Shown piece by piece: positions 3,601-9,600 of a DNA stretch of 32,000 bases. Positions within the stretch are counted from its first letter, which is position 1; each line of letters begins with the position of its first letter. A program made the translations under genes and the position numbers. The notes beneath the pieces were generated by a model, which saw only the letters and a list, made by a program, of their open reading frames with translations, was not told the DNA's origin and did no database searches. The stretch is from Mycolicibacterium smegmatis (lineage in GTDB: Bacteria > Actinomycetota > Actinomycetes > Mycobacteriales > Mycobacteriaceae): NCBI RefSeq assembly GCF_001457595.1, contig NZ_LN831039.1, forward strand, positions 450,001-482,000, given 5' to 3'.

Positions 3601-6600
3601 CCGGTCCGGTTGCACACCAAAGGCAGTGTCGGCGCTGCGAACTGGAACTGGGCCGCGTAGGCCTCGAACTCGTCGAGCACGGGATCGAGCAGTTCGGAGT
3701 GGAACGCGTGGCTGGTCGCCAGCCACGTGCAGCGGATCCCCTCGTCCTCGAACCTCTCGACGATCTCTTCGAGGTCCTCGCCGGGACCCGAGAGCACGGT
3801 GTTGGGGCCGTTGTAGGCGCCGACCGACACCCGGGGGAACTCACCGGCCACCTGCTCGACGTGTTCGGCGTCGGCGAACACGGCCACCATTCGGCCGCCT
3901 TCGGGAAGGCTGCCGAACATGCGGCCGCGCTCGGCCATCAGTCGTGCGCCGTCGTCAAGGCTGAACACGCCCGCCACGCAGGCCGCGGCGTACTGGCCGA
4001 CGCTGTGCCCCAGCACCACATCGGGTTCGATGGCCCATGACTGCCACAGCCGCGCCAGACCCATCTCGACCGCGAACAGCGCGGGCTGCGCGAACGACGT
4101 GTGCTGCAGCAGGTCCGCGGTTTCGCGGTCGGTCGCGAACAGCACGTCCAGCAGTGGTCGCGGCAGCATGTCGGCGACCGCCTCGGCGCACTGCCGAACG
4201 GTCTGGGCGAAAACCGGTTGCGTGTCGAACAATTCGCGGGCCATGCCCGGGTACTGGCTGCCCTGTCCGGTGAACAGCCATGCCGTCGTCGGACGGTGCA
4301 CATGCTCGCCGCGCACCACGCCCGCAGGAGTGCGCCCCTCGGCGAGCGCGGCGAGACCCTCGCGTGCCCGCTCGACCGAGTCGACCACCAGGGCTGCGCG
4401 GTATTCGAAGTGCGAACGGCCCACGCCCGCGGTGTGGCACACGTCGGCGATGTCGAGGCCGGGCGTCGCGCTCAACCAGTCGTCGTAGCGCCGCGCCAAC
4501 TCCACGAGCGCCTCGGGCGACCGCGCCGACAGCGCCAGCACCTGCGGCGAGTCGTCGGTCCCGGCCTCCGCGGTGGCGGCCGGTTCCACGGGCGCAGCGT
4601 CGGCGGTGTGCAGTTGCGGCGGGGCCTCCTCGACGAGCACGTGCGCGTTGGTGCCGGTGAACCCGAACGAACTGACACCGGCACGGCGCACCCGGCCGTT
4701 GGTCTGCCACGGCACCGGTTCGTCGATCACCCGCACCGGCAATGCGTCCCACGGGATGTGCGGTGACGGATTCTCGAAGTGCAGGCTCTGCGGCAGCACC
4801 CCGTGTTGCAGTGACAGCACCACCTTGATCAGACCCGCTGCACCCGAGGCGGATTCGGTGTGCCCGATGTTGGTCTTCACCGATCCCATCAGCAGCGGCC
4901 GGTCGGCGTCACGCCCGGCGCCGTACGCGGCCGCGGCGGCCTGCACCTCGATCGGGTCACCGAGGGGCGTACCCGTGCCGTGTGCCTCGAGGTAGTCCAC
5001 ATCGGCGCCGCTCAGTCCGGCGCGGGCCAGCGTCGCCTCGATGAGCCGTTGCTGCGCACCGCCGTTGGGGACGGTCAACCCGCTGGAGGCGCCGTCCTGG
5101 TTCACCGAGCTCGCAGGGATCACCGCGCACACCCGGTCGCCGTCACGCACGGCGTCGCTGAGGCGCTTGAGCACCAGGACGCCGCAGCCCTCACTGCGCA
5201 CATACCCGTCGGCGGACGCGTCGAACGTCTTGCACCGGCCCACCGGCGACAGCATCCGCGCGCGTGAGGCCGCGACCACGGTGACGGGGCTCAGCAGCAC
5301 GTTGACGCCTCCCGCGAGGGCCAGATCGCAGTCCCCGGACTGCAGTGCCTGACATGCCTGATGGACCGCGACCAGAGCCGAGCTGCACGCGGTGTCGACC
5401 GCGACGGCAGGACCTTCGAAGCCCAGCGCGAACGCCACGCGACCGGAGATCGCGTTGAGCGCATTGCCCGTGATGAAGTGCGGCTCGATCTTGTCGATCG
5501 ACTCGGCCGACAGCAGATGCGCGTACTCGTTGGCGGCAACACCGGTGAAGACACCCGTGCGGCTGCCCCGGAGGTCCGAAGGTGCGTAGCCGGCCCGCTC
5601 GAGACCCTCCCACACCGTCTCGAGCATGAGGCGCTGCTGCGGCTCGATCCACACGGCCTCACGCGGTGAGATGCCGAAGAACTCGGGATCGAATCCGTCG
5701 ATGCCGTCGAGGAATCCGCCGAACCGCGTGTAGGTCTTGCCCGGGGTGTCCGGATCGGGGTCGTAGAACTCGTCGATGTCCCAGCGGTCCTCGGGGACCT
5801 CTCGGATGGCATCGACACCACCGGCGAGCAGCTCCCAGAACGACTCCGGGTCGGGTGCGCCGGGGAAGCGGCAGGACACCGCGACGATCGCGATGGGATC
5901 GTCGGTTCGCGCGGTCACGGTCGACGCCTGCCGCACGTTGGTCTGCTCGCCCAACCCGAGTACCTCGACCAGCAGGTAGTCGGCCGCGTCGGACAACCGC
6001 GGATGATCCATCACGAGCGTGACGGGAATGTCCTTGCCGACACCCTGCTCGATGCGCCGCCGCAGTTCGACGGCCATCAGGGAGTCCATCCCGAGGTCGA
6101 AGAACCCGGCCTCATCGCGGATCTCGTCGGCGTCGACCCGTGTGACCTCGGCGACCGCGTTGCGCAGGTAGTTCGTGATGAGGCTTTTGCGTTGCTGCAC
6201 AGGCGCTTTGGTCAACTGCTCGACGAGCGGTGGTTTCCCGGGCACCGTCGCGGGCGCAGCAGCGCCGGTTGCCGCTGCGGGCAATTCGCTTTCGAGTTCC
6301 GACAGGAACGCGCGCCGGCCTGCCTGCTGGTACAGCGGCAGGAAACGTGACCAGTCGATCTTGGCGACGACTCCCTGAACGGGGCCGGCCACGACGTCGG
6401 CCATGCCTGCGAGGGCCTCGGCGGGCGACAACGTCCGCACGCCTCGCTGCTCGAGGCGGGCACGTGATTCGGCGTCGGCCATGCCCGCGGCCCACGGCCC
6501 GAAGTTCACGCTGACAGCGGTGACACCCCGCTCGCGCAGTCGCCACGCCAGACCGTCGAGAAACGCGTTCGCCGCGCCGTAGGCGGTCTGCCCGAATCCG

Positions 6601-9600
6601 CCCCACACCGACGCGATCGACGATGTGCTGACGAAGAAGTCGAGATCGGTGCGAAGATCTGTCAGGGCCTCGCTCAGATGCCAGGCGCCCCAGACCTTCC
6701 CGGCGAAGACGCGATCCACCTCGGCGTCGTCGAGGCCGCTCAGCGGCGTGGTGCCGATCTCGCCCGCGGCGTGCACGATGCCGGCCAGCGGCGGGAGTTC
6801 GGCGGCGACGGTGGTCATGAGGCGCGCGACGTAGTGCGCGTCGGCGACATCGGCGGTGATCACCCGGACGTCACATGCGTACTGCTCGCGGAGACCGTCG
6901 AGGCGCCGGCGCGCGTCGTCGCCCGGTTCCCGTCGACTCGTCAGCACCACATGACCGGCACCGTGGGAGGCCAGGTAGCCGGCGACCTCGAGCCCGATCG
7001 CCCCGAGACCGCCCGTCACCAGATAGGTGCGGTCCTCCCGCACCGCCAGGGGGGTGTCGCTCGGCTCGCCGGTCCGGCGGACCAGTCGGGGTGCGTACAC
7101 GGCGTCCCCGCGCAGCGCGATCTGGTCCTCACCGTCGCGCGGTGACGTGATCCGCGCGATGAGCCGCGGCCACTCGGTGTCCGCACCGGAGAGGTCGGCG
7201 AGGCCACCCCAGATGTGCGGGAGTTCCAGGGCCGCCGCGCGGCCGAATCCCCACAGGCAACTCTGTTCCGGCACAACGGTGTCGGTGTCGGTGACCCGCT
7301 GCCCGTCACGTGTCACCAACCAGATGGGGCTGCGCAGTTCCGCGTCGTTCGCGGCGCGGAACAGGCGCCGCAGCCCACCAAGGGTTCGGTGCTGCACGCG
7401 CAGCAGGTCCCGCATCGGGGCAGCGGCACCGTCTCCTGCCGCGATGTGCACGACGTACAGCTCACCGGCCGACGCAGCGCGCAGCGTATCGACCAGCTGG
7501 GCCTCGTCGGCGTCGGAGCCGGGCAGCGCGACGATCTGGTGGCGATGACCGCCTGCGGTGAGCGCATCGGCGAACTCCAGGACGGCAGCGGTGTCGTCGC
7601 CGACCAGGATCCAGTCGGCTGCCGCGCCCGTGCTCGCGGCGGCCGAAGCGATCGCGTCCCAACGGATCTCGTACCGCGCATCAGGGTCGACGTGTGTGGA
7701 CCGCTGCTGGTTGTGGCGCGCCGCGAGCTTGTTCAGCACGCGCAGGGTCTGCTCGTCGACGGTCTCGCCGTCGATGAGGGCGGCGAGTTCCTCGATCTGG
7801 CCGTCTTCGAGAAGTCGGACGGCCTGTGTGCGGTGAGGCGTGACGGAACCGGCGCTCGCGGTCTGGGTGTCACGGTCGATCGCACGGTTGTCCGAGAACC
7901 AGAACTGGCGATGCTCGAAGGGATATGTGGGCAGGTCGAGTTTGCGCGCGTCCGGTTGCCGGAACGCGCGGAAATCGGGCAGATGTCCCGCGGCATAGGC
8001 GGCGGCGACGGCCTCGGTGATCTGCCGGTGATCGGCCGTGGTGGGCCGCAGCGACGCGAGCACCTGCGGCGTGGTGGCCGGGTCGGGCCATGCTGCCAGC
8101 GCGGTGGCGGTGAGCACGGGCCTGGGCCCTATCTCCAGCAGCACCCTGCAGTTCATGTCGGCGAGGGTGCGGACGCTCTTGGCGAACTCGACAGGCTGGC
8201 GTGCGTGCCGCCGCCAGTAGGCACCGTCGAGCCTGGTGCTCCGCCCGAGCGCGGACCCGGTGCGGTTGTCGATCAGGATACGTTGCGGTTCACGGTATTC
8301 GAGCTTCTGGGCGAACGACTCGAAATCGTCGAGAATCGGGTCGAGCAGTGCCGAGTGGAAGGCGTGGCTGGTGTCCAGCCAGTCGCACCGCACACCGTCG
8401 GCCACCAATGTGGCCACGGCGGATTCGAGATCCTTTGCGGGACCGGACAATACGGTGTTGGCACCGTTGTACGCGGCAACCGACAGGCTGGGGTACTCGT
8501 CGGTGAGGCGCTCTGCACGCTCGGGGGCGGTGAAAACCGCCGCCATGCGTCCACCCGCGGGCAGGCTGCCGAACAATCGGCCGCGCTCGGCGATCAGTCG
8601 TGCGCCGTCCTCGACGTCGAACACACCCGCCACACAGGCGGCCGAGTACTGCCCGACACTGTGTCCGACCACCACGTCGGGTTCGAAGCCCCAGGACTGC
8701 CAGAGCCGGGCCAGGCCCAATTCGACGGCGAACAGCGCGGGTTGCGCATAGGTCGTGTGCCGCAGCGGCGATTCGGTGTCACCATCCAACTCGTCGGCGT
8801 CGAAAATGACGTCGAGCAAAGGCTTTTCGAGGATATCTGCGACGGCCTCGGCGCATTTCCTCACGGTTTCGGCGAACACCGGTTCGGTGTCGAACAACTC
8901 ACGCGCCATTCCGGGGTACTGGCTGCCCTGTCCGGTGAACAACCACGCGGTCTTGGGTGCCTCGTGGGATTCACCGCGGACCAGGCCGGGCGCCGGACGG
9001 TCGTCGGCGAGCGCGCCGAGCAGTTCGATGGCCGATTCCCGCGAGTTGACCACCAACGCGGCACGCTGCTCCAGGTGGGCACGTGCGGTTCCCGCGGTGT
9101 GGGACACGTCGGCCAGGCGGGCCTGCGGGTGGGCGCGCAGCCAGTCGCGGTACTCACCGGCGAGTCGGACCAACGCCTCGGGCGTGCGTGCCGACAGCGG
9201 AAGGACGCTGTAGCGCCTCGGATCCTCGACAGGCTCTGTCGTCGCCGGTGTTCCGACGGCGGGCGCCTCTTCGAGGATGACGTGCGCGTTGGTCCCGGCA
9301 AACCCGAATGAGCTCACCCCGGCGATCCGCGGCTTGCCGTTGCGCTGCCAGGGAACGGTCTCTCTCACCACCTCGATGGGTAGACGCTCCCACGGGATGT
9401 GGGGCGACGGAGTCTCGAAATTGAGGTGCTTGGGCAACGTCTCGTTCTCGAGCGCCATGACCACCTTGATGACACCGGCGATGCCCGCGGCCGCTTCCAG
9501 ATGGCCGATGTTGGTCTTCGCCGAGCCGATCAGCAGCGGTTCTGTGCGTCCGGCCCCGAGCACCTCGCCCGCGGCCTGGGCCTCGATGGGGTCGCCAAGT

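Follow-up and report, generated by a model that had tools for sequence, protein, structure and literature searches.

The pks gene studied here encodes a bimodular type I polyketide synthase (PKS) and lies at the left edge of a 32,000-nt stretch of Mycolicibacterium smegmatis DNA (contig NZ_LN831039.1, positions 450,001 to 482,000; this whole stretch is called the window, and all coordinates refer to it). Module 1 of the synthase has a ketoreductase (KR1) and no dehydratase (DH), whereas module 2 contains the only dehydratase of the synthase (DH2), followed by an enoylreductase (ER2) and a second ketoreductase (KR2). We give about even chances to the following reading: the synthase is the iterative Pks of trehalose polyphleate (TPP) biosynthesis, DH2 dehydrates twice on the acyl carrier protein (ACP) of module 2, ACP2, and ER2 then leaves a 4-ene.

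Domain order of the synthase

The minus-strand frame 10658..3 is open over 3552 codons, and pks occupies nt 3–10571 of it, with an ATG start at 10571 and an alternative start at 10622; the gene runs off the left edge of the window, so that ACP2 lies outside. Along the translation, Pfam matches follow in the order KS (ketosynthase), AT (acyltransferase), KR, PP-binding, KS, AT, PKS_DH_N/PS-DH, ADH_zinc_N (the ER) and KR, and the gene encodes a bimodular KS-AT-(74-aa linker)-KR-ACP-KS-AT-DH-ER-KR protein (aa, amino acids). All domains are on the minus strand. In module 1, Pfam places KS1 at 9249–10526, with intact DTACSSS, EAHGTGT and NIGH motifs, and AT1 at 7944–8936, with GHSVGQ and the malonyl signature HAFH within nt 8352–8369; KR1 (6294–7673), whose structural and catalytic subdomains were delimited by Pfam, PDB alignment, an AlphaFold2 model and Foldseek, is followed by ACP1 (5979–6191; GMDSL, Ser codon 6084–6086). 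In module 2, KS2 (4614–5897) and AT2 (3279–4286; HAFH within nt 3696–3713) precede DH2 (2304–3206; PKS_DH_N and PS-DH, catalytic His2518 at codon 3105–3107), ER2 (705–1661; NADPH motif HAASGGVG at nt 1218–1241) and the catalytic subdomain of KR2 (3–686). The catalytic Cys-His-His set is present in both KS domains, and because it is intact in KS2, this domain is an elongating KS rather than a KS0. By the HAFH/YASH rule for AT substrates, as quoted in PMC5655351, the signatures mark both ATs as malonyl-type.

A genome scan for orthologous loci listed 80 loci, M. smegmatis, M. abscessus and M. phlei not being among them, and the named homologues from the protein search are all fragments, none longer than 1128 aa. 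About a dozen mycobacterial orthologues from genomes are 3645–3760 aa long and end directly past ACP2, with no thioesterase (TE); each of them has a single HxxxGxxxxP motif, in module 2, and two ACP serines. In the KR1 region the closest genome match among the matches listed is 76% identical, and identity to other mycobacterial orthologues is 57–76%, with the same motifs.

The KS-AT regions of the two modules (7896–10526 and 3279–5897) are 61% identical at the protein level, and 82% identical in one 50-residue AT stretch. When a related library protein of 3188 aa (P0123) is inspected by eye, its two modules appear to share identical long stretches of KS-AT sequence. This likeness between modules suggests module duplication and continuing homogenisation.

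The locus and its product

Divergently from pks, four genes follow on the plus strand: a papA3-like acyltransferase of the condensation-domain family (10814–12235; Pfam PF00668), an mmpL10-like RND transporter (12269–15277; Pfam, MmpL subfamily cut-off passed), a fadD23-like fatty-acid–AMP ligase (FAAL) for starter loading (15387–17096; Pfam, FAAL subfamily cut-off passed) and an acyltransferase PE for final TPP assembly (17041–18309; NCBIfam NF041570, 663 bits vs. a cut-off of 580; Pfam PE-PPE). The gene order in the window matches that of the five-gene TPP cluster, pks-papA3-mmpL10-fadD23-pE, MSMEG_0408-0412 (PMC10465359; PMC5524727). Because the synteny is complete and the PE protein exceeds a curated equivalog cut-off, we identify the locus, by gene order and profile matches, as the TPP cluster and pks as the Pks of the TPP pathway.

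TPPs carry very long polyunsaturated phleates, C36:5 and C40:6 (PMC5902629), and TPP or phleate chemistry has been described in M. smegmatis, M. abscessus, M. phlei and further species (PMC5524727; PMC5902629). An earlier note, made from the letters of this DNA, had argued that if the product were unsaturated at the module-1 position, the dehydration would have to come from the module-2 DH or from an enzyme acting in trans; the TPP locus and its C36:5 and C40:6 chains point to such a product. Phleic acids reportedly have the formula CH3(CH2)14(CH=CH-CH2-CH2)nCOOH, ascribed to Asselineau et al. This corresponds to C16 + 4n carbons with n double bonds (n = 5 gives C36:5, and n = 6 gives C40:6), which a palmitoyl starter would reach in n rounds through modules 1 and 2, and growth from C16 to C36–C40 requires 10–12 extensions. 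By this formula, the Delta-4, 8, 12... double bonds fall where each module-1 extension has its alpha,beta carbons, and both the saturated C2–C3 end and the Delta-4 position agree with release of the chain from ACP2, after module 2. Every module-1 hydroxyl must then be eliminated, because only in this case is the architecture colinear with the repeat unit, and the elimination would have to occur on the synthase-bound chain, before module 2 has finished processing it, since a hydroxyl surviving beyond ER2 would be unactivated.

A product that keeps the module-1 hydroxyl, a 1,5-polyhydroxy or other fatty acid made by a mere look-alike of the TPP locus, would be compatible with the 76% identity in the KR1 region of the closest match given above. 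We nevertheless consider it highly improbable, given the full synteny, the PE score beyond the curated equivalog cut-off and the 57–76% identity to mycobacterial orthologues that have the same motifs; moreover, TPP producers are known to make phleates, and there is no report of polyol-type acids from them.

Module 1 has no hidden dehydratase

Between AT1 and KR1, the 10-residue post-AT motif (aa 912–921, nt 7896–7925) is followed by a linker of 74 aa (aa 922–995, nt 7674–7895) that ends before the first KR-structural strand, YEIRWD, at aa 996. The motif search found no HxxxGxxxxP in aa 900–1560, and comparison of the Pfam DH profiles to aa 901–1206 gave nothing at E ≤ 10, whereas DH2, run in parallel as a positive control, was matched at 1.7e-23. 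An AlphaFold2 model of aa 901–1561, built from 62 homologues (mean pLDDT 82), consists of a disordered stretch, three helices (aa 945–987; H45-51, H55-63 and H69-87 in model numbering), the two Rossmann-type KR subdomains and ACP1. In a Foldseek comparison of this model with the PDB, the top matches were all KR or dimerization element (DE)-KR structures, with no double hotdog among them.

Module 1 was thus tried as the carrier of a cryptic or degenerate DH between AT and KR, and this candidate was discarded on the motif search, the Pfam search, the model and the Foldseek matches; the interval of 74 aa compares with about 280 aa for a double hotdog, and we regard the probability of such a domain as negligible. 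On both points the earlier note was accurate: it had described a module 1 with no DH of its own and only a linker of about 70 aa lacking HxxxGxxxxP, and it had proposed a structural check of region 7250–7950, in which profile, model and fold comparison reveal no cryptic DH.

The linker itself is conserved among homologues, and its helical core (aa 945–987) corresponds to nt 7698–7826 on the minus strand. Foldseek ranked the A-type AmpKR2 first, followed by the DE-KR of spinosyn module 3 (4IMP, entitled 'the missing linker: a dimerization motif') and by Lsd14; the alignment extends over 539 columns for the 4IMP DE-KR vs. about 476 for AmpKR2, which lacks a DE. The phmmer alignments to Lsd14 (7S6B/7S6C) run through the linker, and those to 4L4X and 4IMP reach part of it, the 4IMP sequence match beginning only at the last linker helix. 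In both sequence and fold, the module-1 region is matched best by the DE-KR units of SpnB module 3 (4IMP), AmphI (4L4X) and Lsd14 (7S6B), which likewise have a helical element of about 50–60 aa between the post-AT linker and the KR. The pks linker therefore resembles, in sequence and in its predicted fold, the DE typical of KR-only modules, and is best read as a putative DE.

Types of the two ketoreductases

Of the Caffrey markers, LDD, P144 and N148 denote B-type KRs and W141 denotes A-type KRs, with the catalytic Tyr at 149 (PMC5331325); within the A-type, the residue at Tyr-3 separates A2 (His) from A1 (Gln). In a survey of 1,762 KRs, these motifs were most reliable (87–98%) in actinobacterial KR-only modules and weaker in DH-ER-KR modules, where only LDD was predictive (PMC11228615). 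KR1 has Trp1352 (6603–6605) eight residues ahead of the catalytic Tyr1360 (6579–6581), Gln at Tyr-3, Asn at Tyr+4 and EIG (in HAAGEIGTT, 6753–6761) replacing LDD. When all PDB chains were searched with phmmer, KR1 aligned with the A1-type AmpKR2 (3MJC/3MJS), with its Trp, Tyr, Asn, Ser and Lys on their partners and the Gln at Tyr-3 on Gln364, the residue that is His in the A2-mimicking mutant 4DIF (Q364H). The Trp of KR1 also aligns with that of SpnKR3. In the EIG column the A-type AmpKR2 and SpnKR3 read VAHDD and VGRLL, whereas the B-type Lsd14 KR reads VLDDG; at the KR1-equivalent columns Lsd14 has LDD and lacks the Trp. The catalytic set is complete and lines up with that of AmpKR2 (TGGLGAIG, the Lys, the Ser in STSSIAS, and YGAAN), and KR1 thus looks catalytically competent.

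The Trp, Tyr and Asn of KR1 are invariant across 16 aligned homologues, fragments from M. abscessus and M. fortuitum included, and the pattern W...Q..Y without LDD, together with HAFH in both ATs, was found in 13 of 13 full-length mycobacterial orthologues, where the LDD position is EIG, ENG, EIS or ENN and never LDD. Because of this conservation the fingerprint is not a chance occurrence. By these residues KR1 is classed as A-type and A1-like, formally A0 given the malonyl AT and the lack of an alpha substituent, and its predicted product is the L-(3S)-hydroxyacyl thioester. KR2 has LDD (AGVLDDALL, 402–410), Pro at Tyr-5, Asn at Tyr-1 and Phe rather than Trp at Tyr-8 (Tyr at 237–239), and is by the same markers B-type.

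These assignments agree with those of the earlier note, which had called KR1 A-type from the Trp eight residues before the Tyr and from EIG in place of LDD, with exact coordinates, and KR2 B-type from LDD, Pro and Asn, each of which is found in the sequence. All positions stated in that note, the DH His codon at 3105–3107 among them, were confirmed. The KR alignment that it had suggested, run here, matches KR1 to AmpKR2 residue by residue, and KR1 appears neither B-type nor inactive.

Active site and relatives of DH2

The His-Asp dyad of DH2 (His2518 and Asp2692) is intact and conserved. Two other active-site positions deviate: the YGPxF motif reads WGPTW (2700–2714), with Trp2649 replacing the Tyr, and in the Asp motif (2571–2600, which contains DLCTG) Gly2696 replaces the Q/H of DxxxQ/H. 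Both variants, the Trp in the form A/S-W-G-P, are conserved in about 15 orthologues, whereas nearly all of about 45 DHs from unrelated PKS loci have YGP and DxxxH/Q.

The closest solved structure to DH2 is the DH of CurH, from the curacin synthase (3KG7; E = 8e-44, 153 bits); other solved DHs reach at most 69 bits (CurJ 69 bits, mycobacterial MAS-like and PpsC DHs about 33 bits). This ranking was considered as proof of a shared function and rejected, since other DHs in the all-library search (1.84 billion protein representatives) are equally close. In a distance tree, DH2 and CurH share a clade that is separate from typical DHs of actinomycetes, and only three close cyanobacterial relatives and the library protein P0137 stand nearer to CurH than the TPP DH2 group does; the clade includes members with canonical DxxxQ as well. 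DH2 was also considered as a variant of the gladiolin type, whose defining feature is a second active-site His, and this was rejected because that His is absent (Trp in DH2 and in about 15 orthologues).

Several library sequences resemble DH2 or its module context. P0123 and the 1754-aa P0125 are similar to the TPP Pks, with DHs 55–57% identical to DH2 and the WGP/DLCTG signature, and the KR1 of P0123 has the A-type fingerprint; judged by these sequences, the bimodule exists in more distant organisms. At locus L060 (14402–15400), in a Polyangium sp. metagenome-assembled genome, a DH that follows a KR-only module has WGPNW and DxxxG (IDSAFG) and scores just 58 bits to DH2, which may reflect convergent use of the same active-site variant. 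P0231 (2198 aa) is an AT-less bimodule, KS-KR-ACP-KS-DH-ACP, with a W-type KR lacking LDD; its DH, 36% identical to DH2 by BLASTP and 42% over the phmmer-matched stretches, also lacks the Q/H (DVCNC) and must act on the product of the upstream KR. P0185 (2058 aa; KS-AT-DH-KR-ACP-TE, no ER) is a close relative of the CurH DH (distance 0.28) and has DACTR as in CurH. Outside mycobacteria, no recurrent bimodule of a KR-only module and a CurH-like DH-ER-KR module was found among the 80 loci listed; the cyanobacterial, myxobacterial and other loci among the matches listed are ordinary multimodular lines.

Proposed courses: two dehydrations on ACP2 or one on each carrier protein

In the mechanism that we propose, FadD23 would load palmitate, and module 1 (KS-AT-DE-KR-ACP) would add a malonate unit, from which the A-type KR1 would form an L-(3S)-hydroxyl, no dehydration being possible at this stage. 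Module 2 would add a second malonate unit, and reduction by the B-type KR2 would give a (3R,5S)-3,5-dihydroxyacyl-ACP2. DH2 would then catalyse an ordinary alpha,beta elimination of the 3-hydroxyl, followed by a vinylogous gamma,delta elimination of the module-1-derived 5-hydroxyl that yields a 2,4-dienoyl thioester. Reduction of the 2,3 bond only, by ER2, would leave the 4-ene, that is, the unit -CH=CH-CH2-CH2-CO-, and the chain would go back to KS1 until, after 5 or 6 rounds, PapA3 takes the C36:5 or C40:6 chain from ACP2. The second dehydration by DH2, the order of the eliminations, the iteration and the Z geometry are steps that we infer.

Because KR1 and KR2 together would set the (3R,5S) configuration on which the gladiolin DH acts, the double bonds are predicted to be Z; a geometry for the double bonds of phleic acid was not found in the literature searched.

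Some points weigh against this mechanism. In vitro, the products obtained with CurH and CurJ were E,E dienes, which makes the Z prediction uncertain. DH2 and CurH are only about 33% identical, and uncharacterised DHs are as close to DH2 or closer (P0137, 43%; P0171 and P0179, about 40%). DH2 lacks the second His that serves as the extra base of the gladiolin-type DH, and Trp cannot act as a base; CurH in turn keeps the Tyr of YGP, so that DH2, CurH and the gladiolin DH have no common signature. The domain composition given here for CurG and CurH, finally, is deduced in part from chemical logic.

The same genetic and architectural support, with DH2 as the only DH of the system, extends to another course, in which DH2 reaches across modules: it would dehydrate the (3S)-3-hydroxyacyl chain while this is on ACP1, or after a transient transfer from ACP1 to ACP2 without elongation, and KS2 would extend the resulting 2-enoyl chain. 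This course, too, arrives at the 2,4-dienoyl-ACP2 intermediate before ER2. A-type hydroxyls have been proposed as precursors of cis olefins by direct syn elimination (PMC5331325), and in P0231, a relative of DH2, the DH is forced onto the product of the upstream KR. DH2 would, however, need to handle L- as well as D-3-hydroxyacyl substrates on two ACPs, whereas the DHs tested so far act on one hydroxyl configuration only, and the demonstrated precedents (CurH, CurJ and the gladiolin DH) use one ACP and pass through a 3,5-diol. We therefore consider the cross-module course rather unlikely, and vinylogous elimination on ACP2 as likelier than DH2 reaching back to ACP1.

Search for a dehydratase acting in trans

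A free-standing dehydratase encoded elsewhere, of the Had type of fatty acid synthase II or a MaoC-like hotdog protein, might remove the module-1 hydroxyl in trans, and this route would converge on the 2,4-dienoyl-ACP2 like the two above. Mycobacteria encode many hotdog dehydratases, and the window covers just about 21 kb beyond pks. In these remaining ~21 kb we found no dehydratase or hotdog gene, and across 11 orthologous loci neither a conserved gene nor a conserved DH was found downstream of pks; a trans DH encoded nearby was accordingly discarded for want of a candidate in either set. The TPP cluster has only five genes, and in M. abscessus all mapped TPP-deficient, phage-resistant transposon mutants fall inside it (18 of 18 mapped BPs-resistant and 13 of 13 Muddy-resistant mutants; PMC10465359), although screens of this size (31 mutants) are not saturating, and an essential or redundant enzyme would escape them. 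HadD as the trans DH is ruled out by published lipid data, as an M. smegmatis hadD deletion keeps the polyunsaturated C36:5 and C40:6 phleates (PMC5902629). A trans enzyme would also leave the conserved changes in the DH2 active site unexplained, and we consider it improbable. With no trans DH found in these sets, DH2 stands as the leading candidate; of the two sources that the earlier note had left open, the module-2 DH is thus favoured over a trans enzyme, for which window, orthologous loci and mutants offer no candidate.

The genes downstream of pks in the 11 orthologous loci are not conserved and often encode acyl-CoA dehydrogenases. An acyl-CoA dehydrogenase of about 610 aa (N-terminus SHYKSNVRDQVFNLFEVFG) lies 0.1–1.5 kb downstream of pks in five loci (L001, L005, L011, L012 and L014) and not in all; three others (L004, L008 and L017) have different acyl-CoA dehydrogenases there.

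The window genes beyond the cluster are a 2-oxoglutarate (2OG)-Fe(II) oxygenase gene (DIOX_N and 2OG-FeII_Oxy; 19027–20052, +), which adjoins the PE gene and lies outside the published five-gene TPP cluster, the genes for the flavoprotein and iron-sulfur subunits of a succinate dehydrogenase/fumarate reductase (20835–23493, −), which flank the lipid locus, and genes for a phosphoenolpyruvate (PEP)-mutase/isocitrate-lyase family protein (25011–25778, +), an EamA transporter (26960–28060, −) and a GntR-aminotransferase (MocR-like) regulator (27540–29303, +).

Significance

The rescue of a KR-only module by the DH of the next module (curacin, gladiolin), the iterative use of a bimodule (Pks12) and the role of pks in TPP formation are known already. 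Their combination in one iterative lipid synthase, together with a conserved WGP/DxxxG DH site, may be new, although earlier discussion in Burbaud et al. 2016 is possible. To our knowledge, the origin of the phleate double bonds has not been tested directly, and we know of no experiment on DH2. A little short of even chances, in our estimate, is the more specific proposal that an undescribed DH variant, with Trp and Gly and without a second His, makes two different eliminations per cycle and, together with the ER, writes (-CH=CH-CH2-CH2-)n. This hypothesis singles out His2518, Trp2649, Asp2692 and Gly2696 of DH2.

If it is true, bacteria would have a third route to polyunsaturated fatty acids (PUFAs), beside desaturases and FabA-type PUFA synthases. 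Double dehydration for a missing DH, so far a feature of colinear lines in cyanobacteria, myxobacteria and Burkholderia, would also reach an iterative lipid synthase of actinobacteria, and the two modules would constitute a compact cassette with which 1,5-skipped polyenes could be engineered. Many non-tuberculous mycobacteria carry TPPs as surface glycolipids; the phages BPs and Muddy need them to infect M. abscessus, and pks mutations lead to phage resistance (PMC10465359); the DH2 route would thus make a lipid needed by phages that are used therapeutically against M. abscessus infection. Should the hydroxyl instead be removed on ACP1 or in trans, the system would inform the open question of the origin of polyketide cis double bonds (PMC5331325).

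Comparison with known systems

Iterative bimodular use has a mycobacterial precedent in Pks12, the mycoketide synthase of M. tuberculosis (Chopra et al. 2008, PMC2443190). Like pks, Pks12 is a mycobacterial bimodular type I PKS with a two-module repeat, a long lipid product and no TE. Both of its modules are fully reducing and alternate between methylmalonate and malonate; unlike pks, Pks12 has no KR-only module and no double bonds.

A DH acting for the preceding module was the idea behind the comparison with epothilone in the earlier note. The cross-module DH is said to have been first proposed for the 12,13-cis bond of epothilone, and Tang et al. (JACS 2004) reportedly gave genetic evidence, for modules 4 and 5 of EpoD, that the double bond of module 4 is formed by the DH of module 5. 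EpoD pairs a KR-only module with a DH-ER-KR module downstream of it, and the product has a cis olefin followed by two methylenes. The epothilone synthase is, however, a non-iterative myxobacterial line that takes methylmalonate or malonate at module 4, whereas pks has malonyl-type ATs and is presumably iterative.

In the curacin synthase of Moorea producens, CurG/CurH and CurI/CurJ each combine a KR-only module that has no DH with a following DH-containing module, as in pks. CurG and the fully reducing CurH yield -CH=CH-CH2-CH2-, the four-carbon unit of phleic acid. The DHs of CurH and CurJ, which have an ordinary His-Asp dyad, are reported to take 3,5-diols through an alpha,beta and then a gamma,delta elimination (bioRxiv 10.64898/2026.09.17.752105). 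The DH of CurH, too, lacks the Q/H of DxxxQ/H (DACTR, vs. DLCTG in DH2), but it keeps the Tyr of YGP where DH2 has Trp. The curacin modules are separate proteins, each used once in a colinear line, whereas the pks modules are fused and would be reused 5–6 times.

The gladiolin DH, a diene-forming variant (Hobson et al. 2022, Nat Chem Biol), converts a (3R,5S)-3,5-dihydroxyacyl chain into a (2E,4Z)-dienoyl chain via a (2E,5S) intermediate (bioRxiv 10.64898/2026.09.17.752105). It has His and Phe at the positions of the YGP Tyr and of the Q/H of DxxxQ/H, the His being the second base that gives the Z olefin (PMC12828468), so that the same two active-site positions are non-canonical as in DH2. Its (3R,5S) substrate comes from an upstream KR-only module and the KR of its own module, which matches the KR1/KR2 pairing predicted by fingerprint. 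It differs in belonging to a trans-AT PKS, in having the extra His where DH2 has Trp, and in the lack of an ER, so that its diene persists; in pks, by contrast, reduction of the 2,3 bond by ER2 is expected. Compared to epothilone, the CurH and CurJ DHs of curacin and the DH of gladiolin are the closer and better documented precedents for pks.

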